DNA of 64,000 nucleotides from Elusimicrobiota bacterium (GTDB lineage Bacteria; Elusimicrobiota; Endomicrobiia; CG1-02-37-114; JAHJSO01), in the NCBI GenBank assembly GCA_043826435.1, contig JBDRQF010000038.1, positions 1 through 64,000 on the forward strand. Direction: 5' to 3'. Shown here piece after piece: positions 7,308 through 47,095 of this stretch (positions are counted from its first letter, which is position 1; every line of letters starts with the position of its first letter). The notes under the pieces are model-generated. The model made no database searches and had not been told where the DNA came from. It saw only the letters and a list, made by a program, of their open reading frames with translations. Made by a program: the position numbers and the translations under genes.

Positions 7308-7387
7308 GATTGCTTCGGGGCTTCGCCCCTCGCAATGACAGTATAATAAGAGGGGATTGCTTCGGGGCTTCGCCCCTCGCAATGACA
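7308..7387 (-). repeat. Two tandem REP-like elements (47-bp period)
   Basis: gattgcttcggggcttcgcccctcgcaatgaca occurs twice. Confidence 0.85.
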
Positions 7388-7400
7388 GATGAGGAATGGG

Positions 7401-22991: not shown

Positions 22992-23146
22992 TGTCATTGC
23001 GAGGCGAAGCCGAAGCAATCTCTTTGCCCGCTCTGTCATTGCGAGGCGAAGCCGAAGCAATCTCTTTGCCCACTCTGTCATTGCGAGGCGTAGCCGAAGC
23101 AATCTCTTTGCCCACTCTGTCATTGCGAGGCGTAGCCGAAGCAATC
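22992..23146 (+). repeat. Four tandem REP-like elements (42-bp period) flanked by a 19-bp direct repeat
   Basis: tgtcattgcgaggcg(a/t)agccgaagcaatc x4; aactggtattagacagccc at 22972-22990 and 23171-23189. Confidence 0.92.
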
Positions 23147-23190: not shown

Positions 23191-24018
23191 ATGAGTGTAA
23201 TGAAAAATAAATTTTGTGATCTGGACATGGACCGACTTAAAAGACAGGGGTTCCCTGAGGTTATTTACTGTCCGGGCAAGACGACCCGGCAAATTATAGA
23301 GATTGTGAAAAGGTTTGTTTCCGCAGGACCGGTCGTTTCGGCAGGGCAAACCCGTGCATGCCGGCAGGCCGGTCAACCGCCGGTTATGTGTACCCGCACG
23401 GACAGGAAAACGTATCTAACAGTCAAAAGGAGATTTCCGCAGGCGAGATTTTATCCGGTTGCAAAAATAATAGCAGTACCTTACGGGAAATATCCGGTTG
23501 AAACCGGCAGACAGGGCTACCCGGAGGCACCGTTTGTGTGCGTGGTGACTGCCGGCACAGCAGACATTCCCGTTGCGGAAGAATCCGCTGTTGTGTGCGG
23601 GCTGCTCGGCACGCGGGTTGAAAGAATCTACGACGTTGGTGTGGCAGGCGTCCACCGCATTCTTAAACATAAAGATACACTTTCTTCTGCCTGCTGCGTT
23701 ATTGTGGTTGCGGGTATGGAGGGGGCGCTGCCTTCGGTCGTCGGGGGGCTTGTCCCATGCCCCGTCGTCGGGGTTCCCACGTCCGTTGGCTACGGCGCGA
23801 ATTTCTCCGGGTTGTCAGCCCTCCTCACAATGCTCAACTCCTGCGCTGCTAACGTCTGCACGGTGAACATTGACGACGGGTTCGGAGCGGGGGTAATAGC
23901 GCATCTCATCGCCAGAGGGCAGTCGGCCAGAGGGCAGTCGGCCAGAGGGCAGTCGGCCAGAGGGCGGTCAGTCAGAGGGCGGTCGGTCAGCCGGCAAAGA
24001 CGCAATAAAAAACAATGA
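23191..24018 (+). CDS. larB: Nickel pincer cofactor biosynthesis protein LarB
   Basis: D..R..R.GFPEVIY..GKT, AGTADIPVAEE, DVGVAG.HR, AGMEGALPSV, PTSVGYG, VNID.GFGA. Confidence 0.92.
   Translation: MSVMKNKFCDLDMDRLKRQGFPEVIYCPGKTTRQIIEIVKRFVSAGPVVSAGQTRACRQAGQPPVMCTRTDRKTYLTVKRRFPQARFYPVAKIIAVPYGKYPVETGRQGYPEAPFVCVVTAGTADIPVAEESAVVCGLLGTRVERIYDVGVAGVHRILKHKDTLSSACCVIVVAGMEGALPSVVGGLVPCPVVGVPTSVGYGANFSGLSALLTMLNSCAANVCTVNIDDGFGAGVIAHLIARGQSARGQSARGQSARGRSVRGRSVSRQRRNKKQ
23911..23985 (+). repeat. 5 x 15-bp in-frame tandem repeat at the larB 3' end
   Basis: gccagagggcagtcg x3 plus 2 variants (ARGQS repeats). Confidence 0.9.
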
Positions 24019-26929: not shown

Positions 26930-27592
26930 ATGAGAAAATTTATTGGTGTGATTCTTGCTTTAGGGTTGGTCGCAGTTGCTTTTTCAGGGTTGTTCGCAGC
27001 CACCAGTGACGACGCCTATGTTATTGCTCGTTGTACTGTTAGCGTGAGCGTATTGATACCTAACACCTCAGAACAGGTTAATTTAACTGCCGGTGGTGCA
27101 GGTTCTGTCAATGAGGTGCGGATATCCACATTTGTGTGGGTTATGAATGACTCAGATGGTGCTATTTGTAAATGGGCACTCAGGGTATCAAGTCAGAATG
27201 AGTCTAATGACGGAGGAGTCGCCGATCCATGGGCACAAGTTACTGCTCCAACAGCATGGACACTTTCTACAGACGACACTGCTGCACCAAATGAAGTTGT
27301 GCTTCGGTGCGCTTTTGTCAGTATTACTGCCGCGGAGAGCCATTTCACTGGATCTGCTGGTTATCTGAGTTTAAATGACCAGTACTACAATATTGGTACG
27401 GGGTTTGCAAACCCTGCCAGTGACGCGTACACGGATGCCTGGGCCGATGGCGGATACAACGATGTGAACCCAAATCCAGGAGTACAGAGCACGAGAAACC
27501 TGTATTTCAGGTTAAGGTATCCGACTGCTGTGACTGACCAGTTATACAGAAGGTTCGTAATAACGGTCACCGCTGCACTTGCCGGAAATTAA
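26930..27592 (+). CDS. Secreted beta-rich protein, candidate fibre/pilin-like subunit
   Basis: Strong RBS GGGGAGGTGA, signal peptide, C-terminal LYFRLRYP...VITVTA strand pattern; own promoter and terminator. Confidence 0.65.
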   Translation: MRKFIGVILALGLVAVAFSGLFAATSDDAYVIARCTVSVSVLIPNTSEQVNLTAGGAGSVNEVRISTFVWVMNDSDGAICKWALRVSSQNESNDGGVADPWAQVTAPTAWTLSTDDTAAPNEVVLRCAFVSITAAESHFTGSAGYLSLNDQYYNIGTGFANPASDAYTDAWADGGYNDVNPNPGVQSTRNLYFRLRYPTAVTDQLYRRFVITVTAALAGN

Positions 27593-27634
27593 AGTTTTAT
27601 CGGGACTTGTTAAGTCCGACATAAAGCTTTTTTT
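27592..27634 (+). terminator. Rho-independent terminator candidate
   Basis: tcgggactt-gtt-aagtccga hairpin inside a longer inverted repeat, followed by a T run. Confidence 0.6.
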
Positions 27635-27910
27635 GGCAGGGTGTGGTTTTTAGTTTGTAACAGGGTTGTTGTTAGTTAGAGATATAGTTATTGGTATGAA
27701 GGTTATACCGGTGCGTTTGAACTGACCGAAGGTAGTCCCGATGTTTTCGGGACCTCCTTGGATTAGTAAAAATTCCCCCGTAGAGGTAGACTTCTGTGCC
27801 CGCTAGTTTTATTTATAAAGGGCTGACAGAAAGTCAGCTTTTTGTCTTGTCAGAGACAGGCCGTTTCCCTGCCTTAAAAGAGCCCTGTCTAATTTTTTTT
27901 AAAAAACCCC

Positions 27911-27939
27911 TTGACAAATCCGTATTTTTCAGTTATATA
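27911..27939 (+). promoter_or_regulatory. sigma70 promoter upstream of the hairpin array
   Basis: TTGACA-17 bp-TATATA preceded by ttttttttaaaaaacccc. Confidence 0.65.
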
Positions 27940-28020
27940 CAGCCGTTATCTTTAAATCTCATTTTTTCCGTTTCTTTTTGTGAGACAGGGGAAAATGAGA
28001 TTTCATATTGTTATATTATA

Positions 28021-28459
28021 GGGCTGGGCACAGAGGTTTATCCTCTGCGGGGGAACCCAGCCCTTGTTATTTTTAGCCGGGCACAGTGTCTCTTAACCTC
28101 TACGGGGGAGGAAGAGTCCTTTGTCCCGGCTTTTGTCATTATAGGCGGGCAGGAGTTCTATCTCTACGGGGGGGAAGGAATATCCTGTCCACCTGCAATT
28201 ATGTATGGCGGACGCACAGGGGTCTACGCTCTACGGGGGAGCAATGACACGCCTGTCGTCCGCCTTGCTATTTTCGGGCGGGCACAGGACCTTACTTCTA
28301 CGGGGGAGAAATGTCTTTGTTGTCCGCCCGGCACTTATCGGCAGGTACAGGGGTTTACTTCTACGGGGAAGAAAAAGTCCTGTTACCTGCCATGGACTTA
28401 TCGGCAGGCACAGGGGTCAACTTCTGCGGGGGAAAACAGAAGGAGTCCTGTTGCCTGCC
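28021..28459 (+). repeat. Array of 7 degenerate hairpin units (about 55-68 nt period), most with a cUACGg apical loop; candidate structured RNA
   Basis: Units follow stem-ACAGG-N-YTCTRCGGGG-N-CCTGT-stem with unit-specific complementary outer stems; unit 1 is truncated. Confidence 0.85.
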
Positions 28460-28475
28460 TTTTGCATAAACTAAA

Positions 28476-31400
28476 ATGATATATAAAAAGGACTCAACCA
28501 TCAGAAGGTTTTTGTGTCTGTCAATCGCAACAGCGATTTTTCTGAGCGGTTTGCCTTTGACAAACACCTATTCATACGCTAATTCAGGCGTCGCCTATCT
28601 GATATGCAGAGTCGTCGGAGAATATGATTCACCATATCCTGTTACCAATCTAACTGCTGACTCAATGGTTATCGGATATTCAACCTGGACTGTTGCAGGG
28701 ACATCCGGCAGAATAAAACTTATCTGGACAGCGCCCGAAGACAGACCGTCAGGCGACCAGCCACATTCATACCTTGTCCGGTATGCAACTTTCAGCATAT
28801 ATGATATAGGAGGGAGTACACAAACGTGGTGGGACCACTCTTCTGCCAGAACGCTTACTTCTTTGAGTCTGCCACCTAACTGGGGCATACCTTCAGAAGT
28901 TTCTCCGCACTCAACTGAAATTAAAACGCTCACGGGTATGTCCCCCGGCGCACATTACTGGTTCGGGATTAAAGCACTTGACAAATTCTATAACCACAGT
29001 GATTTAGACGATAATTCCAGTTCAGTTATATACCAGTCCAGTGCCTTTGCCTCCACTCTTATATCATGGCCTTCCCCGATTACAAGTATAACCGCATTAG
29101 CAGCAGACAATCTACCGGGTGGTATAAAACTCAGGTGGTTTTCACCTTATAATAACAGTGACGATGGTGGTTATTATACAGGCGATATAATAAAAGGTAG
29201 ATACAGAATTGTATATGCTACTCATACGCCACCTTTCTTTGCGGGTGATGACAGGTATAATCCCCAGTCAAAATGGAGCAATTCAAGTTCCATATATATT
29301 TCAACTTCTACAGTTCCTCTTGCTGAACAGACATATTTAATTACAGGACTTCTTTCAAATGCAACCTACTTTTTCCGTATATGGACAGCGGATGAATGGT
29401 ACCTAATTGACAAGGCAACAAACAACTGGTCAGGAGAGTCCTATCCGGCGTTTGCTACACCTTTTGCCTATTATGCGCCGAATGATGTGAAGAACCTGAC
29501 AGCACTATCAAAAGCATCTGTTGATTTGAGCACAGGCAGTTACATAGAACTGAACTGGACGAACCCTGGCAATATTTCCGACCTGGACGGAATAAGAATA
29601 TGCTACAGTACGACGGCATATCCATCCAACAAGGACTTCCCTGTGCAGTTAAATCTCACAGGACTGCCTTATTCAACAACAGATGCTTTCGTTGGATATA
29701 TTCATCTAAAACTGCCACCGAGAACAACCTATTACTACAATATTTTTGCATTCAGTAAGATGGGGCTGTTCTCCGGCGGCGCAATGACATACTGTTACAC
29801 GTCGAAAGATATAATATCCCCTGAGCCCCCCGCGGGCCTTTCAGCCCAGACGGATGCAAACACTTCAAACGGGACATACATCACACTCAACTGGTCAAAC
29901 CCGGACAAGGGGCAGTACAGGAATGCCGACTGGACTGATATAGAAATTTATGTGAGCACATTTTCATCCACGGGACAGCAGTCAACATTTGACGCTTCCC
30001 TTGCCCGGTCGCTTTCAACCTCTGCAACCTTCTATAAATGGACAAATTTAGTCCCGCAGACGACCTATTATTTATGGGTAAGGAATTTAGACGGCGGGAA
30101 TAACTTCTCCTCTTCAACCGTTAAATCGTTTACATGGAAAGACACCGTCCCGCCAGGGGCAATTACAGAAAAGGCATACACACCTTCATATTCGGAAGAC
30201 ATTGATGTCGGATGCAAACTTGATATCTCATTCAGGTATCCGGCCGATTCTGACCTTGACAGGTCCTATGTTACCTACAGAGACGACAAATACCCGTCCA
30301 ATCCTGGCGACGGTATTTCAGAGGAACTTCCGAAACCCTCAGCAGGAGAGAAAATCATCAGAAGTTATAGTGAACTCATCGGGAATACCACTTACTATTT
30401 CAGCATATTCCTGTATGACTGGTCCGGCAATCTGACGACATCAACCGTTATGGGCGTCGTGCCTGTCCCTCAGGACAAAACCCTTCCGTTTATGCCGTTA
30501 GGTATGAAGCCGGTGAAGGAGAACAATACATTTAAACTCTACTGGTCTGCCGTTGAATACCAACACTACATAACTGACGTTTCGTCAATATCCGGGATTA
30601 CCAGTCCGGTGCCGAAGTCCAGCGAACTTTACAGGTATCAGATATACGAGTCGGACGATTGGTCCGACTGGAAATTATTGGCGCGGGTAAAACCCGGTCA
30701 GGCGACTGAAATTTCATTATCAATAGGAGACACCGTTAAATACTATAAGGTCCGTTCCGTTGACATCGGCGGGAATTACAATGATTCAATGATTGCGGAC
30801 AACTCCGACGGACTTAACCTGTATTCATTGGCAGCCGACAATTCCTATGTGGCGATAAGCAGGGAAGTCCAGCCGGTTCTGAACGGTGCAACAAACAACC
30901 TTGGCGGCGATATATACATAAAGTGGACAAGGAACACAGGGCAGGAGAAAGGCCCGATATTCAAATCATGGACGATTGAACCGCACATTATAAACAAAGG
31001 TGTCCTTGAGAAAGTGAAAGGGTTCGGCTTTGGCGAGCCGAAGGCAGAGATATCGCTGATGTACGACGTCGGGACAATATCCTCGCGAGGCCCGCAGATG
31101 AGTTCTGCAATAAGCGAGCCGGAAAAGTGGCTATCAATCTTCTTCCACAACGGCAGGGAATGGCTGAAACTCCCCTCGTCCGTTGACGCCGGCAGAAAGC
31201 GTCTTAGTTGCAATGTGAAATTTATAGGCGATTATCAGATAAGGTATGCCCTGAATTCAACCGAGTTCACTTATTTCAAGGTCATGCCTAAAATTATTAC
31301 GCCGAATAACGACGGGACGAATGATAAGGCGTTATTTATATTTGACAACCCGAAGACGACAAACATTAAAATAAAAATATTTGACTTAACGGGTGCAGAG

Positions 31401-31565
31401 GTGAAAGACCTCGGCGAATACAATCAGCACTCTTATGTAAGCGGGGAGATAAAGTCCTGGGACGGCACTGACTCGCAAGGCAACCGTGTGCCGCCGGGGA
31501 CATATATATATCAACTTGAGGGAGAGGAAAAGGTATTCAATGGAACGATTATCGTTGCAAGGTAA
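28476..31565 (+). CDS. Large secreted FN3/Ig-repeat protein with a CHU_C / type-B T9SS-like C-terminal domain
   Basis: Signal peptide; repeated P..V.NLTA...I.L.W..P and TYYF units; C-terminus PKIITPNNDGTND...IFDL.G...WDG...G.YIY...VFNGTIIVAR. Confidence 0.8.
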   Translation: MIYKKDSTIRRFLCLSIATAIFLSGLPLTNTYSYANSGVAYLICRVVGEYDSPYPVTNLTADSMVIGYSTWTVAGTSGRIKLIWTAPEDRPSGDQPHSYLVRYATFSIYDIGGSTQTWWDHSSARTLTSLSLPPNWGIPSEVSPHSTEIKTLTGMSPGAHYWFGIKALDKFYNHSDLDDNSSSVIYQSSAFASTLISWPSPITSITALAADNLPGGIKLRWFSPYNNSDDGGYYTGDIIKGRYRIVYATHTPPFFAGDDRYNPQSKWSNSSSIYISTSTVPLAEQTYLITGLLSNATYFFRIWTADEWYLIDKATNNWSGESYPAFATPFAYYAPNDVKNLTALSKASVDLSTGSYIELNWTNPGNISDLDGIRICYSTTAYPSNKDFPVQLNLTGLPYSTTDAFVGYIHLKLPPRTTYYYNIFAFSKMGLFSGGAMTYCYTSKDIISPEPPAGLSAQTDANTSNGTYITLNWSNPDKGQYRNADWTDIEIYVSTFSSTGQQSTFDASLARSLSTSATFYKWTNLVPQTTYYLWVRNLDGGNNFSSSTVKSFTWKDTVPPGAITEKAYTPSYSEDIDVGCKLDISFRYPADSDLDRSYVTYRDDKYPSNPGDGISEELPKPSAGEKIIRSYSELIGNTTYYFSIFLYDWSGNLTTSTVMGVVPVPQDKTLPFMPLGMKPVKENNTFKLYWSAVEYQHYITDVSSISGITSPVPKSSELYRYQIYESDDWSDWKLLARVKPGQATEISLSIGDTVKYYKVRSVDIGGNYNDSMIADNSDGLNLYSLAADNSYVAISREVQPVLNGATNNLGGDIYIKWTRNTGQEKGPIFKSWTIEPHIINKGVLEKVKGFGFGEPKAEISLMYDVGTISSRGPQMSSAISEPEKWLSIFFHNGREWLKLPSSVDAGRKRLSCNVKFIGDYQIRYALNSTEFTYFKVMPKIITPNNDGTNDKALFIFDNPKTTNIKIKIFDLTGAEVKDLGEYNQHSYVSGEIKSWDGTDSQGNRVPPGTYIYQLEGEEKVFNGTIIVAR

Positions 31566-31581
31566 TATCATGGAAATTATT

Positions 31582-31769
31582 TGCGGAGCACAGGTGTCTG
31601 CCTCTACGGGGAATAGAAGGCATCCTGTCGCTCCGCAGTGGGATTATTTTGCGGGTACAGGGGTTTACTTCTACGGGGAAGAAAAAGTCCTGTTACCCGC
31701 ATACAATTATCAATCGGGCGGGCGCAGATGTCTATTCTACGGGGGTAGAAAACATTCTGTTGCCTGCCC
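31582..31769 (+). repeat. Second array, 3 units of the same hairpin motif
   Basis: Units at 31582-31637, 31650-31701 and 31716-31769; the second unit has a core identical to 28344-28387. Confidence 0.85.
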
Positions 31770-31804
31770 CGGAATTATCATCAATTTCAAACAGGGGGAC
31801 TTAA

Positions 31805-33361
31805 ATGAAAATCTCAAAAACTAAAATTCAAAAATTCCTGGCAGCGCTTCTGCTACTAATCTTAATGTTGCCGGTTGTGTCAGAGGCGGCATTTGAGCAG
31901 ATATCCGTAGGCGCCCGTCCCGCAGGGCTCGGCGGCGCCTACACCGCCCTTTCCGATGATGTGTATTCCGTTTACTACAACCCCGCGGGGCTTGCCCTTA
32001 TACCGCGGACAGAACTCACAACCCAGTATTCACAGTTATACATGGGTCTTTGGGATAACTCAGCGCTGGCATACTCTTTTGTCGGCATTGCCCAGCCGAT
32101 AAAATTCGCAAAGGACTTCGGGACTGTCGGCTTATCCTGGCTGCAGTTTAATTCAAGTAACCTGTACAAGGAAAATACCATGGCTCTGTCTTACGGGAAG
32201 AATTTCCGCATCGGTGGGAAGCCGCTCCTGGATTTGGGGATAAACCTGAAATCGCTTTCATTGGGTTACGGCGAACACGAATACACTTACGATGCCCTGA
32301 CGGACGACGGTGTTACCTGGTCATCCTCCCAGGGTGGCGGGACTAAACGGGCCGATTCGCTATTTGAAAAATACGGTTTTGACAAGTCCGCATTTACCAT
32401 TGACTTCGGCGCAAGATATTCAATTTTCAGAAATTATCGACTGGGACTTATGGTTTCAAACATAACGGAGCCGAATATCGCCCTTGACCCGTCGGTTGAC
32501 GCAAAACTCAGCAGGGCGATAAACTTAGGGATAGCCCACACAGGCCCGAACTACAATCTGGGGTTTGACTTTATGACGAAACAGTTTAATAAACTGACGG
32601 ATTCAAGGATTGCGGTTGCGGGTGAGCAGTACTTTCCGTTCGGGCTGGGTATAAGGGCAAGTTTGGTGACAGGCACGAGGAACCTGTTTAATTTCTCCTG
32701 CGGTTTCGGTTACAGGACCGACGTCCTGCAACTTGACTATGCGATTGAGTATCCCTTGACCGGAATAAAATCTACATTGGGCAGCCACAGGGTTTCGCTG
32801 ATAGTGAGGTTCGGACCTGTGATGAGGTTTGAAGCGCCGGGCACGGAACTCCAGGAGAAACTGTCCGAAACCGAGAGAAAACTTAAGTCAGCGAACGTTG
32901 AAATAGAAAAACTCAGGAAAGACCTGGATGAATTGCTGAAAAAGCCGTCGGCAGTCATTCCGAAGCCGCCTGAGAAACCGTCAGCCCCTGCGGTTGCCGC
33001 CCCTGCGAAACCGGAAGCAGACGACGTCCGGTCGCAATATAATAAGGACTATTCCGACTACAGGAAACAGGCGGAGAAAATGAAATTTGCCGACCGCATA
33101 GGAAAAATAAAATCAATCGTTGACGCATATCATGGAAAAACAGACGTATCTGAAGCAGAAAGGGAATACAAGATTCTTCTTGAAGAACAAGGGACGCAGA
33201 CAAAGATGTATAAGGACAGCATGATTTACTACAGAAAAATGACGCTCGGTGGGATTGACAACAAAACAAAGGTTGACCTTCTCAGGAGAATCATTACGAA
33301 ATACGAACCGTATGACATTGAACTAAAAGAGGCAAAGGAAGAACTTGAAAAACTAAAGTAA
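31805..33361 (+). CDS. PorV/PorQ (UPF0164)-like outer-membrane beta-barrel with C-terminal helical extension
   Basis: GARPAGLGGAYTALSDD...YYNPAGL plug motif, alternating beta strands, LDYA...HRVSL.VRF; then coiled coil and Pro/Ala linker. Confidence 0.8.
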   Translation: MKISKTKIQKFLAALLLLILMLPVVSEAAFEQISVGARPAGLGGAYTALSDDVYSVYYNPAGLALIPRTELTTQYSQLYMGLWDNSALAYSFVGIAQPIKFAKDFGTVGLSWLQFNSSNLYKENTMALSYGKNFRIGGKPLLDLGINLKSLSLGYGEHEYTYDALTDDGVTWSSSQGGGTKRADSLFEKYGFDKSAFTIDFGARYSIFRNYRLGLMVSNITEPNIALDPSVDAKLSRAINLGIAHTGPNYNLGFDFMTKQFNKLTDSRIAVAGEQYFPFGLGIRASLVTGTRNLFNFSCGFGYRTDVLQLDYAIEYPLTGIKSTLGSHRVSLIVRFGPVMRFEAPGTELQEKLSETERKLKSANVEIEKLRKDLDELLKKPSAVIPKPPEKPSAPAVAAPAKPEADDVRSQYNKDYSDYRKQAEKMKFADRIGKIKSIVDAYHGKTDVSEAEREYKILLEEQGTQTKMYKDSMIYYRKMTLGGIDNKTKVDLLRRIITKYEPYDIELKEAKEELEKLK

Positions 33362-33383
33362 GAAGTTGTCGTTGCGAAAACCC

Positions 33384-33520
33384 TGTCATTGCGAGGAGCC
33401 CCCACGCTCTGCTCGGGGTAAACTCCGCGACGAAGCAATCTGCTTTGTTGATGAGATTGCTTCACTTCGTTCGCAATGACATGTGTCGTTTGAGATTGCT
33501 TCACTTTGCTCGCAATGACA
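33384..33520. repeat. REP-like cluster, one forward and two inverted copies
   Basis: tgtcattgcgagg...gaagcaatc; gattgcttc...cgcaatgaca x2. Confidence 0.85.
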
Positions 33521-35916: not shown

Positions 35917-35930
35917 AATACCAGTAAGTG

Positions 35931-36039
35931 TGTCATTGCGAGGCGAAGCCGAAGCAATCTTTCTTATGTCATTGCGAGGGGCGAAGTCCCGAAGCAATCC
36001 CTATTCGTTATGTCGTTGCGAGGCGAAGCCGAAGCAATC
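35931..36039 (+). repeat. Three tandem REP-like elements in the leader of the giant gene
   Basis: tgtc(a/g)ttgcgagg...gaagcaatc x3. Confidence 0.85.
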
Positions 36040-36113
36040 TCTCTTTATGGGTAGTTGGTGTTTGCCGGGATGTTGCCGGGTTTTGGGTCAATAAGTTTTT
36101 GGGTTACTTGAAA

Positions 36114-39100
36114 ATGGCTAAAAGGTTGGCGGTGTGTTTTTTCCTGTGTGTCGTTGTGGTTTTTCTTGCCGCAGGGGACAGCCATGCCCTGTGGTGGGTT
36201 GAGACGAATTCAACCGACTGGAACGACGGGTATTTTTACAGGTCAACCTCAACTGTGGACGACCTAAGAATCAGGGAATGGACCGACTGGCTCGGTTCTA
36301 CATGGACGCAGAGAATGGTTATTGTTATCAATAACGAGAATAACCCCAATACCCTTACCGACTATCAAATCACCCTTACAACAAATACAAAGATATTAGT
36401 TGACGCTAACCGCATGGACCCGCAGGGGAATTCCATAAGATTTACTGAATCAGACGGTGTGACAATCATTCCCCACTGGACCGAGTTCTGGAATATAACG
36501 ACCTCAACCGGCTCAAAATTCTGGGTGAGGGTTTCAACGATACCTGCCAACCTGTCGTCCAAGGAAATATATATGTATTATGGAAATGTTAGCACAAACA
36601 ATGTCTCAAACAGGGGCGCTGTTCTGGATCTCTATGAGGACTGGGAATCAGGAGAAATTGCTTATGGAACTAAATGGTTTGGTTCTGATAGTGAACCATT
36701 CAGAATAGCAATAGACACCTACACATCCAGTAGTGATTTTGATATGGTCTATAGAGGAACATATTCTGTTTGTAATGCAAATATTCTGGATACTCAAATA
36801 TCAGGTATATACACTAACCTGAATGTCTCAATGCCTGTAAAAATAAATTTCTGGTGGAGTAGATATGGAGAAAATCAAGAGGATTATCCTGAGTTTTTAA
36901 TAGATGGTATTTCACGGGGGCAACTTAAAGCTCAAATAATCCCACCCCCCTGGACTGCTGCCCAGTTCAATACAACATATAGCGGACTTATAACAATTAA
37001 GTGGCGCTACTACAAAAATCCAGGCACTACAGTACTGCCTGACAGGGGCTGGATAGACAATATAGTTGTGACAAAATACGCCGATCCTGAACCGACCGTT
37101 TTCGTTCCATATAGTGAAACAAAAACCAATTATTATTCCTCAGCAAAATATCACTCAGATGTTCTTGTTACCCAGGGGGAAAATTCTATTGTAAACTATA
37201 CCTCATGGAGCGTGTCAGGAATTGGCACGACAAAGATATATATGCGTGCCAGTGACACTAGTTTTCTTGTTACCGCTACCCTCCCATCATGGGCACAGGT
37301 GTACGATGAATCAAAACCTTCTGGAATACAGGGGAAATATATCCAGTACCAGGCAGAGTTCACTTCTGACGGTTCAACCGCACCTTCTCTTGGAGAAATA
37401 TCAATAGAATACAGGTCACCGCCGCCTCCCCCGAAAAATTTTATGGCTACAACAATCTCAACCTCCGTTATACTGTGGACATGGGAAGACCAGGCAAACG
37501 TTGTTATGTCAACAAGTACCTATGTGTACAGAATCTATATGAGCACACGCGCGCTAACTGCTGGTGGAGTTGGTGGATATGTGTCACCCGGCACTTCTTC
37601 ATTAGGCCTCTGGAAAGAACTTACAGGGGATACAACTTTCTGGTATGAGGATAACCTGATTGCCAATAAGGGTTATACAAGGTCGGTGGTTGCCGCAAAT
37701 GATGTGGGTGGGAATGTGGGTTCCCCTGCGATGGTTATGAAATACACCCGTGCTGTACCGCCGAATGTCAAATCAGAATATTTCAGATTTTTACCGATTT
37801 CGGGCTCTGAATATGTCCCCATATCCACAGGGGTATGGCACCAGCATAAATATTTTGGGGCAACTACAGGAAATTTTGTAAGTCAAATCAGCAGTGGTCC
37901 TGGAACAATTCAGTACTACAGGGTGGACTGGGCAACCGTGTCTTTCCGGGCATGGAATAACAATGAGACCCGTTGGGAGCCAGTGGTATCAACAGTTACC
38001 CATCCTGATTCCGGAGAAACAATAACAAAAAAACCCGAAGTGTTACAACAGGCAACATTGAACAGGAATTCATGGTATTTTCATGTTGCAAGTTATAATG
38101 GCGATAATGAATTGAGTACTTCAAGTGTTTTGGGACCTTTTTATTTCAATGGGTGCCCTTCCACAATAACTGATTTAGTGGCACTACCTTCAACCAGCCA
38201 GGAGGGCTGCGTCATTTTGAGATGGACAGCTCCCTATGCGGACTCCACTTTTAACAACATATCTTCCGGGAAATATTATCTGAAATACCGGGAAAACTTT
38301 AACATAAGCAATGATTCCCAGTTTGATGCTGCCGCTGGTTTGGTTAAGTTAACAACGACGGTTGCCAATCAGAGAGAGACCTATGTAATTAGCGGATTGA
38401 TTCCCGGCAATACTTACTGGTTTGCGATTAAAGCAGAAGATAGTGAAGGCAACAAGTCCGAATTGTTTGTAACCACTGACACCGCAATATTCTTCAATCG
38501 GAGAACGACCGCAGCCAAGATTGCCAAAATTGCTTTCAAGACATCTCCGCAAACGTATTCCGTGGGCGAAACGGCAGCACAGATTTTTGTTGAAACACAG
38601 GACTCGGCAAACAACCCTCTGGCAGTCGCTGAAGATACAAACATATATCTATATACTGATTCCTCTGAGGGAGAGTTTGCAACAACCCTGTCACCGACCC
38701 CTAACTGGACCGCTTCAGGCCAGGGGTTCGTAAAGGTTTTAAAAGGCACAAGCACTGCTGCCGGTTTCTGGTACCGCGATAAGAAAGCAGGCACACCAAG
38801 GATTACCTGTGATGAAGGCCCGGATAAACAATGGACAGCCGGCGAACAAATCCAGTCGGTTGTCCCCGGTTCTGCTGTGAAGTTTCGTATTGTGTATGAT
38901 ACCCCGAATAACTATGACTCAATAACAAAAGAACCATACCCGTCTAATTCTACCCTGTGGAGTGAAAAGACCGCATTCATTCAGGCGATTGACGGATACG
39001 GTAATATTTCGGATAGATACAGGGGAGGTATAATTTCAACCACAACGCCTGCCGAACAGGCAATGATACCCAGCAGCCATACCTTTACGGCTGTTGACGG

Positions 39101-42100
39101 CGGTTCAAAGACGGTTAAGATTCAGAACTTTTATATTGCAGGTCCTGCATGGACAAAGGTCCAGGAAGTTACTGACGAGAATTACAGGGATGTTTATTTT
39201 TATGATGAAAATACGGGCTGGGCAGTGGGAGACAAAGGGACGGTCAAAAAAACCGGCAACAAGGGCTCATCTTGGTATTCCCAGATTTACGGGGCATCAA
39301 CCTTAAACGGATTGAACGGGGTGTATTTTTTTGATATGTTCACCGGTTGGGCTGCCGGACAGGCAGGCCGTATAATAAAGACAGTTGACGGCGGCAATAC
39401 ATGGTCTGCACAAAACAGCGGTTCGTCGGCAATTCTTTACGGCGTGTATTTTGTAAATGCAAGCACGGGCTTTGCCTGTGGTGCTTCCGGGACGCTGTTA
39501 AAAACGTATGATGGAGGTAGCCCCTGGTTTTCAAGCAACACCGGGCTCCCTGTGAATGACCTGCACTCAGTTTATTTTATAGATGAAAATTCGGGCTGGG
39601 TCGCGGGTAAGAACGGCAGTGTTTACAGGACAACAGACAGCGGGGCGAACTGGGTATCCGTTTCCGTGCCCGGTTTAACCACCCAGAATTTATACAACAT
39701 AAGATTTTTAACCAGAAAAGCAGCGCCCGGCACGGGTTTTATAGTCGGTAACAGCAGTGAAATATACAGGACTACCGACGGTGGGACCAGCTGGACCGGA
39801 GTTAACAGCAGTACCTCCCAGATAATCTATGACATTGATTTTAATGACCCGAATACGGGGATAGCGGCTGGTTCAAACGGGGCAATAGTCAGGACGACAA
39901 ACGGCGGCACCAGTTGGTCCGTTATGTCTTCAACATACACAAAATCGTTTTACTGCGCGGATTTTTATAGCGCTGGTTTTGCTCTGGGTGCCGAAGGGAC
40001 AATAGTTAAGTCACCCGATCTCGGATTGACCTGGGCGCAGTGGCTGATGGAAGGAAAATCAGCCGTTCTTAACTGGAAAGGCACGGTTTTTGTCCCCGCC
40101 TCCGACTCATTCCCGCCCCCTGCAACACTCAGGATGGGAAGGGACAATCAGGCGATGTTCTTATTGGGCATGAGGATTCTCAACTACCAGACAGGTGATA
40201 ACGCCAAACTCACGACGGTTATATTTGACAAAACGGGGACAATAAATAACGCAGAAGCAAGTTCGGTAACGGTGAAATTATATCGTGATACCGGCGATAG
40301 GCAATTCAGTCCGACTGGCGATACATTTAAGGGGCAGACAATGTTTTCTCCCGGCACCGGACAGGCAACATTTTCAGGTCTCAGCGAGACCCTCAGCGGG
40401 ACAACCGTCTACTATTTTATTGTCCTTAACATCCCCGTTTTATCTGACATAATAAATGATACTATCGGTGTCCGGTTTCCGCAGAATGCATTTACAATTG
40501 AGGCAGGCGGCGTCCCGATGGCGAGGAACAATTTAGCATACAGCGTACCTCCTGCTACAATAGTCCCCAGTTCATGCACTGTTTCGTTTATGGACACTGA
40601 CATTGCACCAACAGAAACAACCCAGGGAACAAAGGACCTCCAGGTGTTCCGTTTTGATATGTCAACCGACAGGTCGGACAGCCCCTGGCGACGACTGACC
40701 GTAGAAAGGACAGGACAGAATACCGCGGATTCTGACATTGACAAGGTGAGTGTTTACGCCATATCCGTTGCACCTGAAAACTTTATAAGTTCAGGTGTTT
40801 TTAGCGCGGGTATTTGTAACATAAACTTTAGCAATGCGCCGCTGATAATCACTACAACACAGCAATTTTTTGTTACAATGGATATATCACCGAATGCAAG
40901 ATATTCAACCGATACGGACACTGCGACAGTCGGATTGAGACTTTTCTCAACGACAAACTATGTCAGGTTGGACACAGACGGGATGAACGGCATATCCCCT
41001 TCGGGAAAGGAAATTGCGTCAAAACTGGTAAAGATAAACGTTGCCTATGATATGGTGCTGATTTCCCCGGTATTCCTGACCGTTCCTGAAATTTACCAGG
41101 GCGAGGAAAAGGCATTTCTGGCGCTAAACATATCAATAGACGCCAACAATGCCACCTGGACACGGATGCGTCTGGGAAAAACAGGGACGGCCGGCGACAG
41201 CGACATAACCTCTGCATCACTCTACCGGGATTATGACGGTAACGGCAGTTTTAACGTGAACATAGACACTTATGTGGCGGGAAGCAATTTTTCAGGCGGA
41301 ATAAGCGACATTGTTTTTGCTACCCCTGAGACAATTGATAGGGTTCTGCCGCAGTACGCCACGTATTTTGTAACCCTTAAAATAGCCAAGACGTCAGGGA
41401 TTGACAAGACAGTGGCAATCAGGGTCGCCACACAGACATATGTTACAGTCGCCCTGCCTGACAGGGTTTCGTCCGCAAACTTTCCGATACAGTCCTCCAC
41501 CGCTACCATTAAAGACTATCCTGATACGGTTCAGGCAACGCTGACGGATATGGCACCCTATGACGCCAGGGTTGACGAAACAGTTCTTGCCGGGAAGATT
41601 CAATTAGTTACCTATGTGGATGCAACTTTCCAGAGTTTGCGCCTTGCGCACGAGGGTTCTGCCTCCACTGATGCGGTCAGGACAATAAGATTCTACAGCG
41701 ATTATAATTCAGACGGCGGTTTTTCTGCGTCGGACGACATGCTTATTGCTACCGCTTCATTCAACTCATCAGGAATAGGTATGCTGAATTTTGCAACTCC
41801 TCCCGTTATCCGTGACAGCACCCGGACGTTTTTTGTGGTCATTGAACTCAACCCGGACAAAGCGGAGCCGGGTAAAAATATTGGCTTTGGTGTTGATTAT
41901 ACCGGCTTTCAGTATAACCTGCCTAACATGGGCAATAACTTCGGTTATTTCAGGTGTTCCCTTGTGAAGTTACTGGATAGGAGAACGCCGACAGTCCCTG
42001 CTGTTGATTTGCAGTTTGACAACCCCACACCTGTCAGGATATCAGGCAGGGATGTATATTTTACGAATAAATCAGCCGAGATAAAGTTCAACTGGCGGTC

Positions 42101-42971
42101 GGAAGCCCTCAACGGCATAAAAGAATTAAAATATACGATCGCCTCATACCAGATTGTAACAGGCACGGAAACGCCTGATGTCCTGTCGTACTGGAATACA
42201 ACGGCCGACAGCAGCGTATCCTTTTCCGACATAAACTTGAAGCACAATACCGTGTATCACCTCTGGCTTAAGGTCTATAGCACCGACGATTTTGTCAGGA
42301 CAAAAAACATTGAGTTTAAGGTTGATACCACACCGCCGCCTGCACCCAATGCACCCGTACACACGGCCAGGAACGGTGTGTCAGCCGCACAGTCGCAGAA
42401 CTCATACTGGGTTTCATGGTCAGCCGTGTCCGACGCAGAGTCAGACATAATGTTCTACGAACTCCAGGAACGCTTGGACACTTCGCCCGTGTGGGTAAGC
42501 GTAAGCAGTACGATAGCACCGTCAATCACCGACTACCAGATAAAGAACAAGGAAGAAGGGAAGTTTTACTATTACCGTGTCAGGGCAAGGAACTATGCGG
42601 GGACATGGGGAAGTTTCTCTTCGGATTCAAAGGCGGCGTATTTATCATTGCCGTCAGGGCCGATAGAACAATTGGCGAACTATCCTAATCCGTTTGATTC
42701 CCGTTATCAGAAAACGACGATTACCTATATTCTAAAAGAGGACTCGGAAGTCACAGTGAGAATTTTTGACCTATTCGGCATTCCTGTTACCACAATGCAC
42801 TTTCTAAAAGGGCAGAGCCCCGGTGGGGTGCAGGGGGCGAACAACATTTTATGGGATGCTACCAACGACCAGGGGCAGAAGATTGTCCAGGGGATGTATA
42901 TAATGTCCGTTGAGGTAAAATCAGACAGTTCAACCATTCGCAAGAACTGGAAAATAGGAGTGATACATTGA
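36114..42971 (+). CDS. Giant (2285 aa) secreted surface protein: DUF2341-like, FN3, Ycf48/BNR propeller, Ig repeats, FlgD-Ig / type-A T9SS-like C-terminal domain
   Basis: Signal peptide from ATG 36114; LTDYQI..SIRFT..HWTE..WVRV..IYMYYGN; repeated GWAVG..G....T.DGG.TW; NYPNPF...TITY.L...IFDL.G...WD..ND.G..GMY. Confidence 0.85.
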   Translation: MAKRLAVCFFLCVVVVFLAAGDSHALWWVETNSTDWNDGYFYRSTSTVDDLRIREWTDWLGSTWTQRMVIVINNENNPNTLTDYQITLTTNTKILVDANRMDPQGNSIRFTESDGVTIIPHWTEFWNITTSTGSKFWVRVSTIPANLSSKEIYMYYGNVSTNNVSNRGAVLDLYEDWESGEIAYGTKWFGSDSEPFRIAIDTYTSSSDFDMVYRGTYSVCNANILDTQISGIYTNLNVSMPVKINFWWSRYGENQEDYPEFLIDGISRGQLKAQIIPPPWTAAQFNTTYSGLITIKWRYYKNPGTTVLPDRGWIDNIVVTKYADPEPTVFVPYSETKTNYYSSAKYHSDVLVTQGENSIVNYTSWSVSGIGTTKIYMRASDTSFLVTATLPSWAQVYDESKPSGIQGKYIQYQAEFTSDGSTAPSLGEISIEYRSPPPPPKNFMATTISTSVILWTWEDQANVVMSTSTYVYRIYMSTRALTAGGVGGYVSPGTSSLGLWKELTGDTTFWYEDNLIANKGYTRSVVAANDVGGNVGSPAMVMKYTRAVPPNVKSEYFRFLPISGSEYVPISTGVWHQHKYFGATTGNFVSQISSGPGTIQYYRVDWATVSFRAWNNNETRWEPVVSTVTHPDSGETITKKPEVLQQATLNRNSWYFHVASYNGDNELSTSSVLGPFYFNGCPSTITDLVALPSTSQEGCVILRWTAPYADSTFNNISSGKYYLKYRENFNISNDSQFDAAAGLVKLTTTVANQRETYVISGLIPGNTYWFAIKAEDSEGNKSELFVTTDTAIFFNRRTTAAKIAKIAFKTSPQTYSVGETAAQIFVETQDSANNPLAVAEDTNIYLYTDSSEGEFATTLSPTPNWTASGQGFVKVLKGTSTAAGFWYRDKKAGTPRITCDEGPDKQWTAGEQIQSVVPGSAVKFRIVYDTPNNYDSITKEPYPSNSTLWSEKTAFIQAIDGYGNISDRYRGGIISTTTPAEQAMIPSSHTFTAVDGGSKTVKIQNFYIAGPAWTKVQEVTDENYRDVYFYDENTGWAVGDKGTVKKTGNKGSSWYSQIYGASTLNGLNGVYFFDMFTGWAAGQAGRIIKTVDGGNTWSAQNSGSSAILYGVYFVNASTGFACGASGTLLKTYDGGSPWFSSNTGLPVNDLHSVYFIDENSGWVAGKNGSVYRTTDSGANWVSVSVPGLTTQNLYNIRFLTRKAAPGTGFIVGNSSEIYRTTDGGTSWTGVNSSTSQIIYDIDFNDPNTGIAAGSNGAIVRTTNGGTSWSVMSSTYTKSFYCADFYSAGFALGAEGTIVKSPDLGLTWAQWLMEGKSAVLNWKGTVFVPASDSFPPPATLRMGRDNQAMFLLGMRILNYQTGDNAKLTTVIFDKTGTINNAEASSVTVKLYRDTGDRQFSPTGDTFKGQTMFSPGTGQATFSGLSETLSGTTVYYFIVLNIPVLSDIINDTIGVRFPQNAFTIEAGGVPMARNNLAYSVPPATIVPSSCTVSFMDTDIAPTETTQGTKDLQVFRFDMSTDRSDSPWRRLTVERTGQNTADSDIDKVSVYAISVAPENFISSGVFSAGICNINFSNAPLIITTTQQFFVTMDISPNARYSTDTDTATVGLRLFSTTNYVRLDTDGMNGISPSGKEIASKLVKINVAYDMVLISPVFLTVPEIYQGEEKAFLALNISIDANNATWTRMRLGKTGTAGDSDITSASLYRDYDGNGSFNVNIDTYVAGSNFSGGISDIVFATPETIDRVLPQYATYFVTLKIAKTSGIDKTVAIRVATQTYVTVALPDRVSSANFPIQSSTATIKDYPDTVQATLTDMAPYDARVDETVLAGKIQLVTYVDATFQSLRLAHEGSASTDAVRTIRFYSDYNSDGGFSASDDMLIATASFNSSGIGMLNFATPPVIRDSTRTFFVVIELNPDKAEPGKNIGFGVDYTGFQYNLPNMGNNFGYFRCSLVKLLDRRTPTVPAVDLQFDNPTPVRISGRDVYFTNKSAEIKFNWRSEALNGIKELKYTIASYQIVTGTETPDVLSYWNTTADSSVSFSDINLKHNTVYHLWLKVYSTDDFVRTKNIEFKVDTTPPPAPNAPVHTARNGVSAAQSQNSYWVSWSAVSDAESDIMFYELQERLDTSPVWVSVSSTIAPSITDYQIKNKEEGKFYYYRVRARNYAGTWGSFSSDSKAAYLSLPSGPIEQLANYPNPFDSRYQKTTITYILKEDSEVTVRIFDLFGIPVTTMHFLKGQSPGGVQGANNILWDATNDQGQKIVQGMYIMSVEVKSDSSTIRKNWKIGVIH

Positions 42972-42992
42972 GAGTAACTATTCACTCATCCG

Positions 42993-43196
42993 TGTCATTG
43001 CGAGGAGCGTTAGCGACGAGGCAATCTCATAAGACAAAGGGGATTGCTTCGGCTGTGCCTCGCAATGACAGGGTGGGCAAGGGGATTGCTTCGGCTGTGC
43101 CTCGCAATGACAGGGTGGGCAAGGGGATTGCTTCGGCTGCGCCTCGCAATGACAGGGTGGGCAAGGGGATTGCTTCGGCTGCGCCTCGCAATGACA
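42993..43196. repeat. REP-like cluster, one forward and four tandem inverted copies (42-bp period)
   Basis: gattgcttcggctg(t/c)gcctcgcaatgaca x4 separated by gggtgggcaaggg. Confidence 0.92.
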
Positions 43197-43198
43197 AT

Positions 43199-44806
43199 AT
43201 GAACAAGGTGCTTGCCGCCCTGTTGTCTTTCCCCGTGTGCCTTATGATAGCAGCCGGTTGTTTCGCCGCAGGCACCGACCCGTCTGCATTCCTGTCTTAC
43301 GGGGCTGGCGGCAGGGCTTTCGGCCTCGGGGGCGCCTATGCAGGGATATCCGAAGACGCAACCGCCACTTATTACAACCCGGCTGCTCTCGGGGCGCTCC
43401 AGTATAAGCAACTGCTAACGTCCTACTCAACCCTGTGGGAAAACACGGATTACAGTTATGCCGGCTACACCCACCCTCTGGTGGATGCGGGAGCGTTGGG
43501 TTTTAACATTGTCCGGCTTTATTCAGGCGGGGCTGAACGCAGGGATATTTATAACAAGCCACAGGGGAATTTTGACCACTCGCGCACAGGCATAACGGTG
43601 GGTTACGGTAAGGGCATATACAAAAACATTTATGCGGGGCTTAACGGCAAATTCATTAATTCAGTCCTGGACACGAACACGGCGAATTACTTTTCCGTTG
43701 ACGTCGCGGGTTATTACCGTATAAACCACGTGCTGAGCATAGGCGCCAACCTCCAGAACGTAATTCCCATAACGATGAGCAGTACCGACGACCGCCTGCC
43801 GCTGAATTTCAAGATGGGAGCGGGTTACAAGGTATTCGGGGACAAAGTGTTGTTTGCGGTTGACCTGAACAAGAACTCGGGACGCAGTTCCAGTATCATT
43901 GATTTTTATTCATTGGGGCTGGAGAGCAGACCTTTTAATTTCTTGAGTTTCCGCCTTGGCAAAAACGTCCATGAGGTTACTGCCGGTTTCGGTTTGAAAC
44001 AATCCATAACAGGCATTATATTTTCTCTTGACTATGCAGTCGCAATGCATGATTATTTAGGGGTTTCGCACAGGGCGTCTCTTGATTTCAGGTTCGGCAG
44101 GAGTATAGAAGAGATAAAACTTGCCCGGAAAACACAGGAGGACTCATCCGTCAGTGAACTGAAACCCGAAGAGATAATGATTAAAGAACAGAAAGAAGAC
44201 AAATTCAGGGCACTGTATCAGGATGCGGTTGAAAGTTATAAACAGGGACTGTTTTCAATCGCACTTGAGAAATTCAATGCGGCAAAGGAAATTTTACCCG
44301 AAGACACGCTTGTGCCGGTCTATATTGAGCGGCTTGGTACAATCGTCGGGGTGATAACTCAGCACATAAGTTCCGGGAAGACAGGCGATCTTCTCAGGAG
44401 GGGGGTTGCATACTTCGTTGAAGGTGATGGTGAAAGCGCCGTCAAGACGATTGCTTATCTTCTCTCCATTGAGCCGGAGAATTTTACGGTTGAACGGCTT
44501 CTGAACCGCCTGGAGGAGAAAACAGGGATTAAGGCGGAGAAATCAACCCCGATGACAAACCTGTCTGTTGTGGAACAGAAATTATATGAGTGCTTAATAC
44601 ATTTCAAGAAGAGGGATTTCTGGAAAGCGATATCCCTGTGTGAACAGATACTTGTTCTTGAACCCGACAATGTGGCCGCTTACAAGCGAATGGGAAGCGC
44701 GTTTTATGCTCTCGGGGAAAAAGAAAAGGCAAAAGAGGTCTGGCAGAAAGCCCTTTTAATACAGCCCGACCCGAAGTTGAAGGACTTTATTGAAAAAATG
44801 AAATAA
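43199..44806 (+). CDS. PorV/PorQ-like outer-membrane barrel with C-terminal TPRs
   Basis: AFLSYGAGGRAFGLGGAY.G..EDA.A.YYNPA, LDYA...HRASL.FRF; TPR helices (AYKRMGSAFYALG..A...WQKAL). Confidence 0.82.
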   Translation: MNKVLAALLSFPVCLMIAAGCFAAGTDPSAFLSYGAGGRAFGLGGAYAGISEDATATYYNPAALGALQYKQLLTSYSTLWENTDYSYAGYTHPLVDAGALGFNIVRLYSGGAERRDIYNKPQGNFDHSRTGITVGYGKGIYKNIYAGLNGKFINSVLDTNTANYFSVDVAGYYRINHVLSIGANLQNVIPITMSSTDDRLPLNFKMGAGYKVFGDKVLFAVDLNKNSGRSSSIIDFYSLGLESRPFNFLSFRLGKNVHEVTAGFGLKQSITGIIFSLDYAVAMHDYLGVSHRASLDFRFGRSIEEIKLARKTQEDSSVSELKPEEIMIKEQKEDKFRALYQDAVESYKQGLFSIALEKFNAAKEILPEDTLVPVYIERLGTIVGVITQHISSGKTGDLLRRGVAYFVEGDGESAVKTIAYLLSIEPENFTVERLLNRLEEKTGIKAEKSTPMTNLSVVEQKLYECLIHFKKRDFWKAISLCEQILVLEPDNVAAYKRMGSAFYALGEKEKAKEVWQKALLIQPDPKLKDFIEKMK

Positions 44807-44824
44807 AACAAGGGGAAAGTATAT

Positions 44825-46306: not shown

Positions 46307-46309
46307 CTT

Positions 46310-47089
46310 ATGGACTTTATGACAATTACGGGGTTGTTGGTTGGCGGGCTTGCAGTGTATTATGCCCTGGCAGTGGGGGGTATAGGGGATCTTATATTTA
46401 ATCTACCTGCTGCAGTTCTGGTATTCGGTGGAACACTTGGAGCGACCATGGTTACATATCCATGGTCAATATTTAGCAGGGTGCCAAAAGCGGTAGGACT
46501 GATGCTATTCCCCCCAAAGCGACTTTCGCCGGAACACTATATTACACTTCTGGTGCAACTTTCAGAGAGGGCAAAAAAATCAGGTATTGACAGTTTACAG
46601 GATGACATACCGAAAATACAGGACCCATTTTTAGTGGATGGATTACAGATGCTTCTGGACGGCCTGGATGCAAATATGGTCAGGGAGAACCTGGACAAAG
46701 AAATCGTTTTTTTGAGACGCAGGCATTCCCAGCTTACCTCTGTTTTCAGAAGTATGGGCACCTATGCCCCAATATTCGGTCTTCTCGGAACCCTTATAGG
46801 TGTTGTTCAGGTTTTGCAGAACCTTACTGACCCCACGTCCATTGGTGCGGCTATGGCTGTGGCGGTTGTCACAACTTTCTATGGGATATTCAGCACAAAT
46901 TTTTTCTATCTGCCGACTGCAGGAAAACTGGATTCTTTAACCGAGCAGGAGGTCCTCCTGAAAGAGGTTGCTATTGAGGGGATCTTAGCCATACAAAAAG
47001 GGGATATCCCGATGATTGTTTCCCGCAAACTGCATGCCTATCTGGCGTACAAAATAAGACAATTCCACCGAAAGAAAGAGACTAAATAA
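46310..47089 (+). CDS. motA: MotA/PomA-family stator subunit
   Basis: VFGGTLGA, DPFL..GLQML.DG, APIFGLLGTLIG, AVVTTFYG, P...KL, EGILAIQ.G. Confidence 0.93.
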   Translation: MDFMTITGLLVGGLAVYYALAVGGIGDLIFNLPAAVLVFGGTLGATMVTYPWSIFSRVPKAVGLMLFPPKRLSPEHYITLLVQLSERAKKSGIDSLQDDIPKIQDPFLVDGLQMLLDGLDANMVRENLDKEIVFLRRRHSQLTSVFRSMGTYAPIFGLLGTLIGVVQVLQNLTDPTSIGAAMAVAVVTTFYGIFSTNFFYLPTAGKLDSLTEQEVLLKEVAIEGILAIQKGDIPMIVSRKLHAYLAYKIRQFHRKKETK

Positions 47090-47095
47090 ATTAAA

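Follow-up and report, generated by a model that had tools for sequence, protein, structure and literature searches.

A tandem array of seven hairpins precedes the gene of a large fn3 protein in the genome of an uncultured Elusimicrobiota bacterium, and the question raised by this locus is whether the array acts as RNA, as a DNA repeat or as coding sequence, and what it does for the genes on either side. A preliminary description, made from the letters alone, had taken it for the 5′ leader of the downstream gene, transcribed from a promoter at 27911, with an undescribed structured RNA motif or a new REP-like family as the two readings. The best explanation of the results from the window, meaning the whole 64-kb stretch of DNA that was analysed, and from its relatives is that the array belongs to an RNA control module specific to this lineage, in an operon of the order gene X, module, type-IX-style cargo and barrel.

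Seven sense-strand RNA hairpins in front of the cargo gene

All seven units were located where the preliminary description had placed them, and the distance of 16 nt that it gave between the array end and the next ATG agrees with the end of U7 and the cargo ATG at 28476.

28021..28459, + strand: hairpin array of seven tandem units, U1-U7
28021-28063, + strand: U1, core at 28043
28075-28131, + strand: U2, core at 28098
28144-28193, + strand: U3, core at 28162
28207-28264, + strand: U4, core at 28229
28275-28330, + strand: U5, core at 28296
28340-28391, + strand: U6, core at 28359
28403-28459, + strand: U7, core at 28422

The core-to-core spacing in the array is 55, 64, 67, 67, 63 and 63 nt, and A+T rich linkers of 9-13 nt separate the units. 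The outer stem of each unit, 7-9 bp long, varies in its letters between units with complementarity kept; the inner stem is ACAGG/CCTGT in its clean form, and the apical part carries the invariant core TCTRCGGGG. The five outer-stem pairs quoted at the outset were all correct, G-U pairs included. The shared frame ACAGG-N-YTCTRCGGGG-N-CCTGT stood in its core, since YTCTRCGGGG is present in seven of seven units, and failed in its flanks, the exact ACAGG...CCTGT being found only in U4, U6 and U7 (3/7). U2, U3 and U5 are variants of this frame, and U1 is atypical and short, lacks CCTGT and scored 14.5 bits as against 44-72 bits for the remaining units with the covariance model, which gave units E-values of 1e-9 to 7e-17. 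The tetraloop sequence cUACGg reported for five units was counted as CTACGG in five of the seven, with CTGCGG in U1 and U7. A UNCG tetraloop would place CUACGG as loop and closing pair; the MFE and the alifold structures predict an apex closed by U-G/C-G pairs around ACGG(G) instead.

The + strand from 27940 to 28480 folds at −244.6 kcal/mol (z = −10.7), and none of 100 shuffles folded as well. The opposite strand of the array folds at −208 kcal/mol (z = −10.4); the + strand is the more stable of the two and both beat their shuffles. Covariation was tested on 63 model-aligned units, 59 of them distinct, in an alignment that is fitted to the model and in this way favours structure. Standard pairs occupied 92.1% of 646 cells compared with 71.1% in shuffles, and changes on both sides were seen in 134 cells compared with 32 ± 8 in shuffles and 10-41 when the partners were slid. 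Compensatory change on both sides was found at all 12 stem pairs, so that the stems do covary as had been proposed. RNAalifold, run independently of the model, predicted the same two stems. In the sense units G-U/U-G cells numbered 47 and A-C/C-A cells 8, so that selection for the structure acts in RNA, on the operon strand, and the + strand structure suggested earlier is supported. The apical 5-bp stem NYUCU/GGARN of the window units is not kept in relatives; conservation there is accordingly one of sequence, and this stem was left out of the second covariance model used below. In sum, the units form hairpins in the sense-strand RNA, built of an outer stem that varies and covaries, the conserved stem ACAGG/CCUGU and an apex with the conserved sequence GUCUACCUCURCGGGG.

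An invariant apex on a variable stem in many tandem copies (3-14) is also what might be expected if the array served to titrate or assemble an RNA-binding protein that specifically recognises the apical sequence. This reading is improbable, since the neighbourhood is without a conserved gene for an RNA-binding protein and the complementary box described below would not be recognised by a protein that binds the sense RNA. A Csr/Rsm-type sponge RNA was rejected on the same side of the question, CsrA (PF02599) not being found in the genome, which is 96.7% complete.

A repeat family of uncultured Elusimicrobiota

Three further units were located with the covariance model between the cargo and barrel genes.

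31583-31769, + strand: V1-V3, three further units
31583-31636, + strand: V1
31651-31700, + strand: V2
31716-31769, + strand: V3

V2 shares its inner part with U6, from which its outer stem differs by a compensating change of A-T to G-C. A covariance model trained on six units (R1) and run against the genome's own 1.83-Mb assembly of 61 contigs gave ten matches, nine of them at the array locus and the tenth marginal (E = 3.6). The second covariance model, R2 (15 sequences, 12 base pairs), found the hairpin family in 14 of 122 genomes of the same class. Per family of the class, it was present in 3/3 genomes in each of two families and in 4/10 in a third; the largest family gave one marginal match in 89 genomes and essentially lacks it. 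A search of 185,579 species genomes for the exact 22-nt pattern ACRGRRGTCTACCTCTRCGGGG gave nine stretches. All of them lie in MAGs titled Elusimicrobia, Elusimicrobiota, Endomicrobiia or Endomicrobiales bar one, which its submitters titled Ignavibacteria and a genome-based classification places in the same class; 30 metagenome stretches also carry the pattern.

Searching Rfam 15 with the 64-kb window gave no match at the gathering threshold, as the proposal of an undescribed structured motif had anticipated, and at E <= 10 the best match in 27700-28700 was Atu_C8 with 23.2 bits against a threshold of 50. No description of the hairpin family was present among the literature matches listed (RNA motifs, tandem or intergenic hairpins, Elusimicrobia), and Elusimicrobia are not mentioned in the accessible text of bioRxiv 10.64898/2026.10.21.760802 or PMC5737381, the supplements of which could list the motif. 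The hairpins of the array are genuine, and the undescribed RNA repeat family to which they belong adds to the known RNAs one that is restricted to uncultured Elusimicrobiota and absent from Rfam and, supplements aside, from the literature searched.

A conserved operon and an inverted copy that reads as a start site

The array lies in the following gene order.

26930..27592, + strand: gene X, 220-aa secreted protein of an Elusimicrobiota-only family, with SD GGGGGAGGTGAT
28476..31565, + strand: cargo gene, 1029 aa, fn3 and a CHU_C type-IX-style C-terminal domain (profile matches)
31805..33361, + strand: barrel gene, 518 aa, TraF_2/UPF0164-like (PorV/PorP-like) outer-membrane protein (profile match)

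Gene X is the conserved gene immediately 5′ of the module, a gene of 220-280 aa with a signal peptide being found there in ten genomes, and its SD is the strongest in the neighbourhood. It has no Pfam family and no PDB relative (best E = 0.13), its Atlas clusters are Elusimicrobiota only, and an Atlas structure search gave weak hints, with TM of 0.44-0.50, to camelysin/TasA-like Peptidase_M73 folds. The cargo gene has a signal peptide and an ATG without SD. The neighbourhood is kept in the ten genomes, where a MerR-receiver regulator, a secreted Ig-like protein of roughly 305 aa and gene X come first, followed by a single inverted copy of the unit, a sense array of 3-14 units and, in some, extra small genes. 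Next comes an fn3 cargo of 960-1270 aa, with a CHU_C type-IX-style tail in seven of the ten, and then further units, a TraF_2/PorP-like barrel of 500-610 aa and often one more unit. Two RNA libraries from separate studies have contigs over gene X, at 26955-27675 and 27092-27670; such libraries may include DNA, and these contigs do not rank genes by expression. They end at 27670-27675, before the inverted copy, one of them with a loose end, and these ends do not mark a transcript 3′ end. No RNA-library contig lay on 27676-33480 (box, array, cargo and barrel), an absence that is uninformative on expression.

The inverted copy, here called the start-site box, and a hairpin between it and gene X are placed as follows.

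27737..27755, + strand: small hairpin GTCCCG...CGGGAC between gene X and the box, read from the fold
27765..27805, + strand reading TTCCCCCGTAGAGGTAGACTTCTGTGCCCGC: start-site box, a single inverted half-unit (covariance model)

The small hairpin is kept in relatives with changed stem letters, as judged by eye in eight loci. The covariance model matches the box on the − strand at 27765-27800 with 22.7 bits, and the reverse complement of the inverted copy on the operon strand is CCCCGUAGAGGUAGACUUCUGUG. On that strand the inverted copy reads as an SD (GAGGU, 27783-27787), 9 nt and GUG (27796-27798), with two in-frame TAG codons in the box at 27781 and 27787. The box is more conserved than the units: ACRGAAGTCTACCTCTRCGGGG, or the same with GGGG replacing GAAG, is near-invariant in ten genomes of several families, with a T-rich stretch in place of the unit's 3′ half, and GAGGTAG...GTG was found in 23 of 23 loci. 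In the ten genomes and in 22 of 30 metagenome loci a sense array follows a single inverted copy; the other eight loci have one orientation only and none is mixed. In an independent DNA run (X3) one extra A was seen at position 27767, in the A-run just 5′ of the box.

The 16S rRNA of this genome, which uses SD sequences with similar spacing, ends in CACCUCCUUUCU, and it follows that the ACCUC of the unit core is the anti-SD pentamer. Set against the box, ACCUC of the unit faces GAGGU and CAC faces GUG, and the conserved part of the units is the exact reverse complement of SD-spacer-GUG over about 22 nt. When the ten window units were cofolded one by one with box RNA, the gain beyond the separate folds was −18.4 to −28.8 kcal/mol, as against about 0 for shuffled box RNA. 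When 60 units from ten genomes, which are not independent, were compared with their own inverted copy, 92 changes were A>G or C>U, 19 were other transitions and 76 were transversions. The A>G / C>U bias is what pairing of the sense units with operon-strand box RNA would tolerate, and the stem within each unit, or a stronger constraint on G and U positions, could also produce it. At the R position the inverted copy has G in two genomes, and G is found in all 16 of their units. The 76 transversions would weaken pairing outside a 10-nt seed, as would a further 52 in positions 9-23 of an ungapped anchor-based comparison, which is usable at those positions only, indels upstream of the core mis-registering the units.

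An inverted repeat on either side of a segment of 130-620 bp that holds a promoter-like site can also be read at the level of DNA, as recombination sites that invert the box-array segment or as a REP/MITE-like repeat, and one Y1 transposase-like gene (Y1_Tnp) is present elsewhere in the genome, on contig C17 and outside the array contig. Such an element is very improbable. The units occupy one locus of the 1.83-Mb assembly and, bar one copy, run in the operon sense, which disposes of the REP-like family of the preliminary description; the G-U versus A-C bias is strand specific, and no site-specific recombinase or transposase was found within the 64-kb window. Inversion of the inverton or shufflon kind found no support: 123 of 124 BLAST alignments of the segments between box and array from 32 loci are collinear, the exception being an internal palindrome. 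DNA contigs of two independent runs (X3, X5) are collinear with the window and hold no strand-changing joints, contigs being able to hide rare variants. REP/BIME elements were likewise rejected on dispersal and on orientation, which is fixed in the ten genomes and 22 metagenome loci. RAYT-associated REP sequences have GTAG at the foot of the palindrome and a cognate RAYT gene; in the units GTAG is found on the opposite strand only, in the apex. The genome's true dispersed hairpin repeat looks different from the units, with the core GTCATTGCGAGG in 123 copies, in both orientations and on 36 of the 61 contigs. Tandem copies of this repeat, 40-47 nt long, were seen in the window at 22992-23146, 35931-36045, 43037-43196 and 7294-7388, and at others.

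A leader frame kept open through predicted terminators and hairpins

The GUG of the box opens a reading frame that runs to the cargo gene and contains several further elements.

27796..28479, + strand: leader open frame, GUG to TGA, 227 codons (open 681 nt)
27822..27843, + strand: T1, terminator-like hairpin GCTGAC-AGAAA-GTCAGC then TTTTT (sequence and fold)
27912..27940, + strand: promoter-like site TTGACA-17-TATATA of the preliminary description, unverified, inside the leader frame
27954..28003, + strand: T2, long hairpin with 12-nt perfect arms extended in the fold, then a U-rich stretch (fold)

This frame crosses T1, the promoter-like site, T2 and all seven units without a stop, and its TGA overlaps the cargo ATG as ATGA; the other two frames over the same span have 8 and 9 stops. 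The frame is open for 339-1704 nt from the GUG in all 23 loci, which are mutually related with only about ten independent sequence lineages, and the other two frames there contain 6-41 stops. In three of the 23 it reaches the end of the available sequence, leaving 20 complete. The idea of an untranslated leader lacks support in view of this stop-free passage from GUG 27796 through the array to the cargo ATG, found likewise in the related loci. In the non-repeat part alone, from the GUG to the first unit, none of 1116 pooled codons from 17 of 17 loci is an in-phase stop, and the other two frames hold 136, from which about 68 would be expected in phase. One lineage has a 1-nt insertion between the TAG codons of the box and the GUG, and there the open frame tracks the GUG. 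The end of the frame is ATGA at the start of the next gene in nine of the 20 complete cases, TAA-1 nt-ATG in three and something else in eight. The leader frame is probably translated, and both its phase and its SD point to the GUG as the start.

The peptide from this frame is not conserved. Substitutions in codon positions 1, 2 and 3 numbered 435, 461 and 469 in 14 pairs, indels shift the frame locally and further indels restore it, and none of nine leader translations matched a Pfam family. The unit spacing is not a multiple of three, and the core is translated as STG, LYG or LRG. With neither a codon-position bias nor a conserved peptide, selection acts on the openness of this frame and not on its product. 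A long ORF with SD and start codon in every lineage could as such be an ordinary gene for a repetitive protein, the hairpins being a by-product. This is hardly credible and was rejected, since the core-to-core spacing listed above puts the core in all three frames and since the third-position excess and the Pfam match of such a gene are missing and the local frame shifts are restored.

Terminator-like hairpins inside the frame and 5′ of the first unit were found in 13 of 17 loci by a simple scan, which over-extends G-U/A-U pairs and missed the T1 of the window that is visible in the fold. The promoter at 27911 found no support, lying inside the open frame and not being called by a consensus promoter scan. 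Since every lineage keeps the frame open from the box on, a functional transcript must include the box and the 27911 promoter is not the main one; it is at best secondary. In one relative (L010, G009:C52, about 8900-9100 in locus coordinates) the leader from box to array is 618 nt long and contains short purine-rich and pyrimidine-rich repeat runs (CAGAGGACAGAGG..., CTCTCATCTCT...), still stop-free in phase. A second open frame covers the units between cargo and barrel.

31570..31824, + strand: second open frame, ATG 4 nt past the cargo stop, covering V1-V3, too short for statistics

It ends 17 nt within the barrel gene. The frames over the middle and post-barrel units are too short for their openness to be informative, and in the middle array of one relative (L009) no frame is open through all three units.

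A possible translation-coupled attenuator and its rivals

The reading tentatively preferred here, with a chance of being right that falls a little short of even, is an attenuator coupled to translation, each of its hairpins holding in store a sequence complementary to the start site of the leader itself. Transcription would come in from gene X, and a ribosome starting at the GUG would trail the polymerase and prevent the internal terminators from forming. With the terminators blocked in this way, the polymerase would continue into the array and the cargo genes, and the ribosome would terminate at the ATGA and restart on the cargo gene. Each unit would fold locally during synthesis and lock its anti-start-site stretch in a metastable state; by computation, the duplex of start site and unit is favoured over the separate folds by 18-29 kcal/mol. 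A unit once opened, most simply by the translating ribosome, could capture the start site and stop further initiation, and cutting by RNase III, which is encoded in the genome, may follow. Cargo and barrel would in the end be produced at a low, self-limiting level as against an abundant product of gene X. Several downstream genes in relatives carry their own SD, and coupling is therefore not always needed. A module of this kind suggests a new way to couple translation with the control of a surface-protein operon.

It is doubtful that the hairpins form a ribosome-actuated, self-closing switch, in which they would be kinetic traps holding 3-14 anti-start-site copies. The pioneer ribosome, needed to override the terminators, would here unzip the hairpins, the start site would be captured in a duplex of far greater stability, and each transcript would be translated once or a few times only. 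If this is so, cis-acting RNA devices would gain a new class, one that limits or counts rounds of translation and sets the ratio of a minor to a major surface component.

The leader may also be translated with the hairpins acting alone, by pacing or stalling ribosomes or by protecting the junctions between cistrons from nucleases in the way of selective processing and stabilisation, and with the likeness to the start site left over from an origin by inverted duplication. Very stable hairpins do stand at gene junctions, after the cargo and barrel genes as well as before them, and many transversions separate the units from the inverted copy. A lone unit, distant from any inverted copy, is moreover found at another locus after a FliG-TPR fusion gene in two relatives belonging to the window's order. 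What this reading leaves unexplained is the exact reverse complementarity of about 22 nt to SD-spacer-GUG and the match at the R position, where all 16 units have G with the G of their inverted copy, and it is considered unlikely.

Units at a second locus would require a factor acting in trans, and the inverted copy could supply one if transcripts of gene X, ending at the hairpin and U tract immediately 3′ of the box, carried it as the seed of an antisense RNA that pairs with the units in read-through mRNAs, in the manner of an anti-repeat with its repeats, and leads to RNase III cleavage. A single-stranded, conserved box directly 5′ of a U-tailed hairpin in most lineages, the strong computed pairing of box and units and the presence of RNase III in the genome all speak for this. 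The stop-free frame that begins in the box is left without explanation, and the RNA-library contigs over gene X stop before the box, a weak argument on the same side; a trans antisense RNA is distinctly unlikely.

Relation to known systems

The attenuator proposed here shares parts with several known cases. The pyrBI operon is controlled by translation-coupled transcription attenuation with a leader ORF. Suppression of intrinsic terminators by the ribosome, and ribosome-polymerase coupling, are treated in the accessible portions of PMC4824070 and PMC5021804. As in attenuators of the pyrBI type, the leader frame has its own start site and crosses a terminator (predicted in the present case), the peptide is unimportant, and a nearby trailing ribosome can prevent termination, as it would do here. 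Unlike these, the leader frames of the family have 113-568 codons and not tens of codons, carry 3-14 stable hairpins each with the reverse complement of the leader's start site, and overlap the next gene stop to start. Nothing in them points to a metabolite or charged-tRNA signal. Translational coupling through termination and reinitiation at ATGA overlaps is described in the accessible part of PMC6728339. The overlap of the leader TGA with the next ATG in 9/20 complete loci is of this form, with the difference that the upstream partner is a non-conserved leader frame and not a protein gene.

In mRNAs of the hok/sok type, the RNA forms metastable hairpins while it is being made, the start region is shut by long-range pairing, and hok is coupled to the overlapping frame mok. 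Kinetically trapped local folds set against a more stable, start-masking long-range pairing, together with a coupled frame, are proposed for the present module too. Unlike in hok/sok there is no toxin, the anti-start sequence is tandemly repeated, terminators lie inside the frame and the genes controlled would be those of a surface-protein operon.

A CRISPR array with a tracrRNA anti-repeat likewise has an adjacent inverted copy able to pair with the repeats. The likeness lies in the tandem arrangement with a period of about 63-67 nt, in the single adjacent inverted copy and in RNase III as a possible partner. The preliminary description had nevertheless been right that this is not a CRISPR: the linkers of 9-15 nt contrast with spacers of 30-40 nt, the units differ from each other and are self-complementary, and no Cas family was found among the 50 scanned ORFs of the window. 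REP/BIME elements and intercistronic stabiliser hairpins are stable imperfect palindromes, in tandem, at gene junctions, and the present units resemble them in all three respects; they are unlike them in not being dispersed, in their fixed orientation and in the strand-specific G-U bias.

From each of these cases the module differs in combining a long, unconstrained frame with tandem hairpins that mirror the start site, and the signature is an unusual one, a long frame being kept open across terminators and start-site-mirroring hairpins with its peptide unconstrained. If the proposed mechanism is true, terminator suppression by the ribosome, stop-start coupling and start-site masking are joined in one module, which would explain unequal expression of the gene of a major surface subunit and its rarer partners from one operon. 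"Hypothetical proteins" called across such arrays are not to be taken as protein families, and leaders that are stop-free yet unconstrained offer a signature by which translated regulatory leaders can be sought in metagenomes.

Other features of the window

Two further observations were made in the window. A 15-nt unit, GCCAGAGGGCAGTCG, is repeated 5.3 times at 23911-23990, at the end of an AIR-carboxylase-like ORF (23191-24018) and just 5′ of a nickel-insertion (LarC-like) gene. Further downstream, from 35928 to 48447, the gene of a 2347-aa BNR/fn3 surface protein precedes those of a TPR protein, a 493-aa FliG-like protein, MotA and two MotB/OmpA proteins, a stator-rotor-like set that adjoins giant surface proteins.
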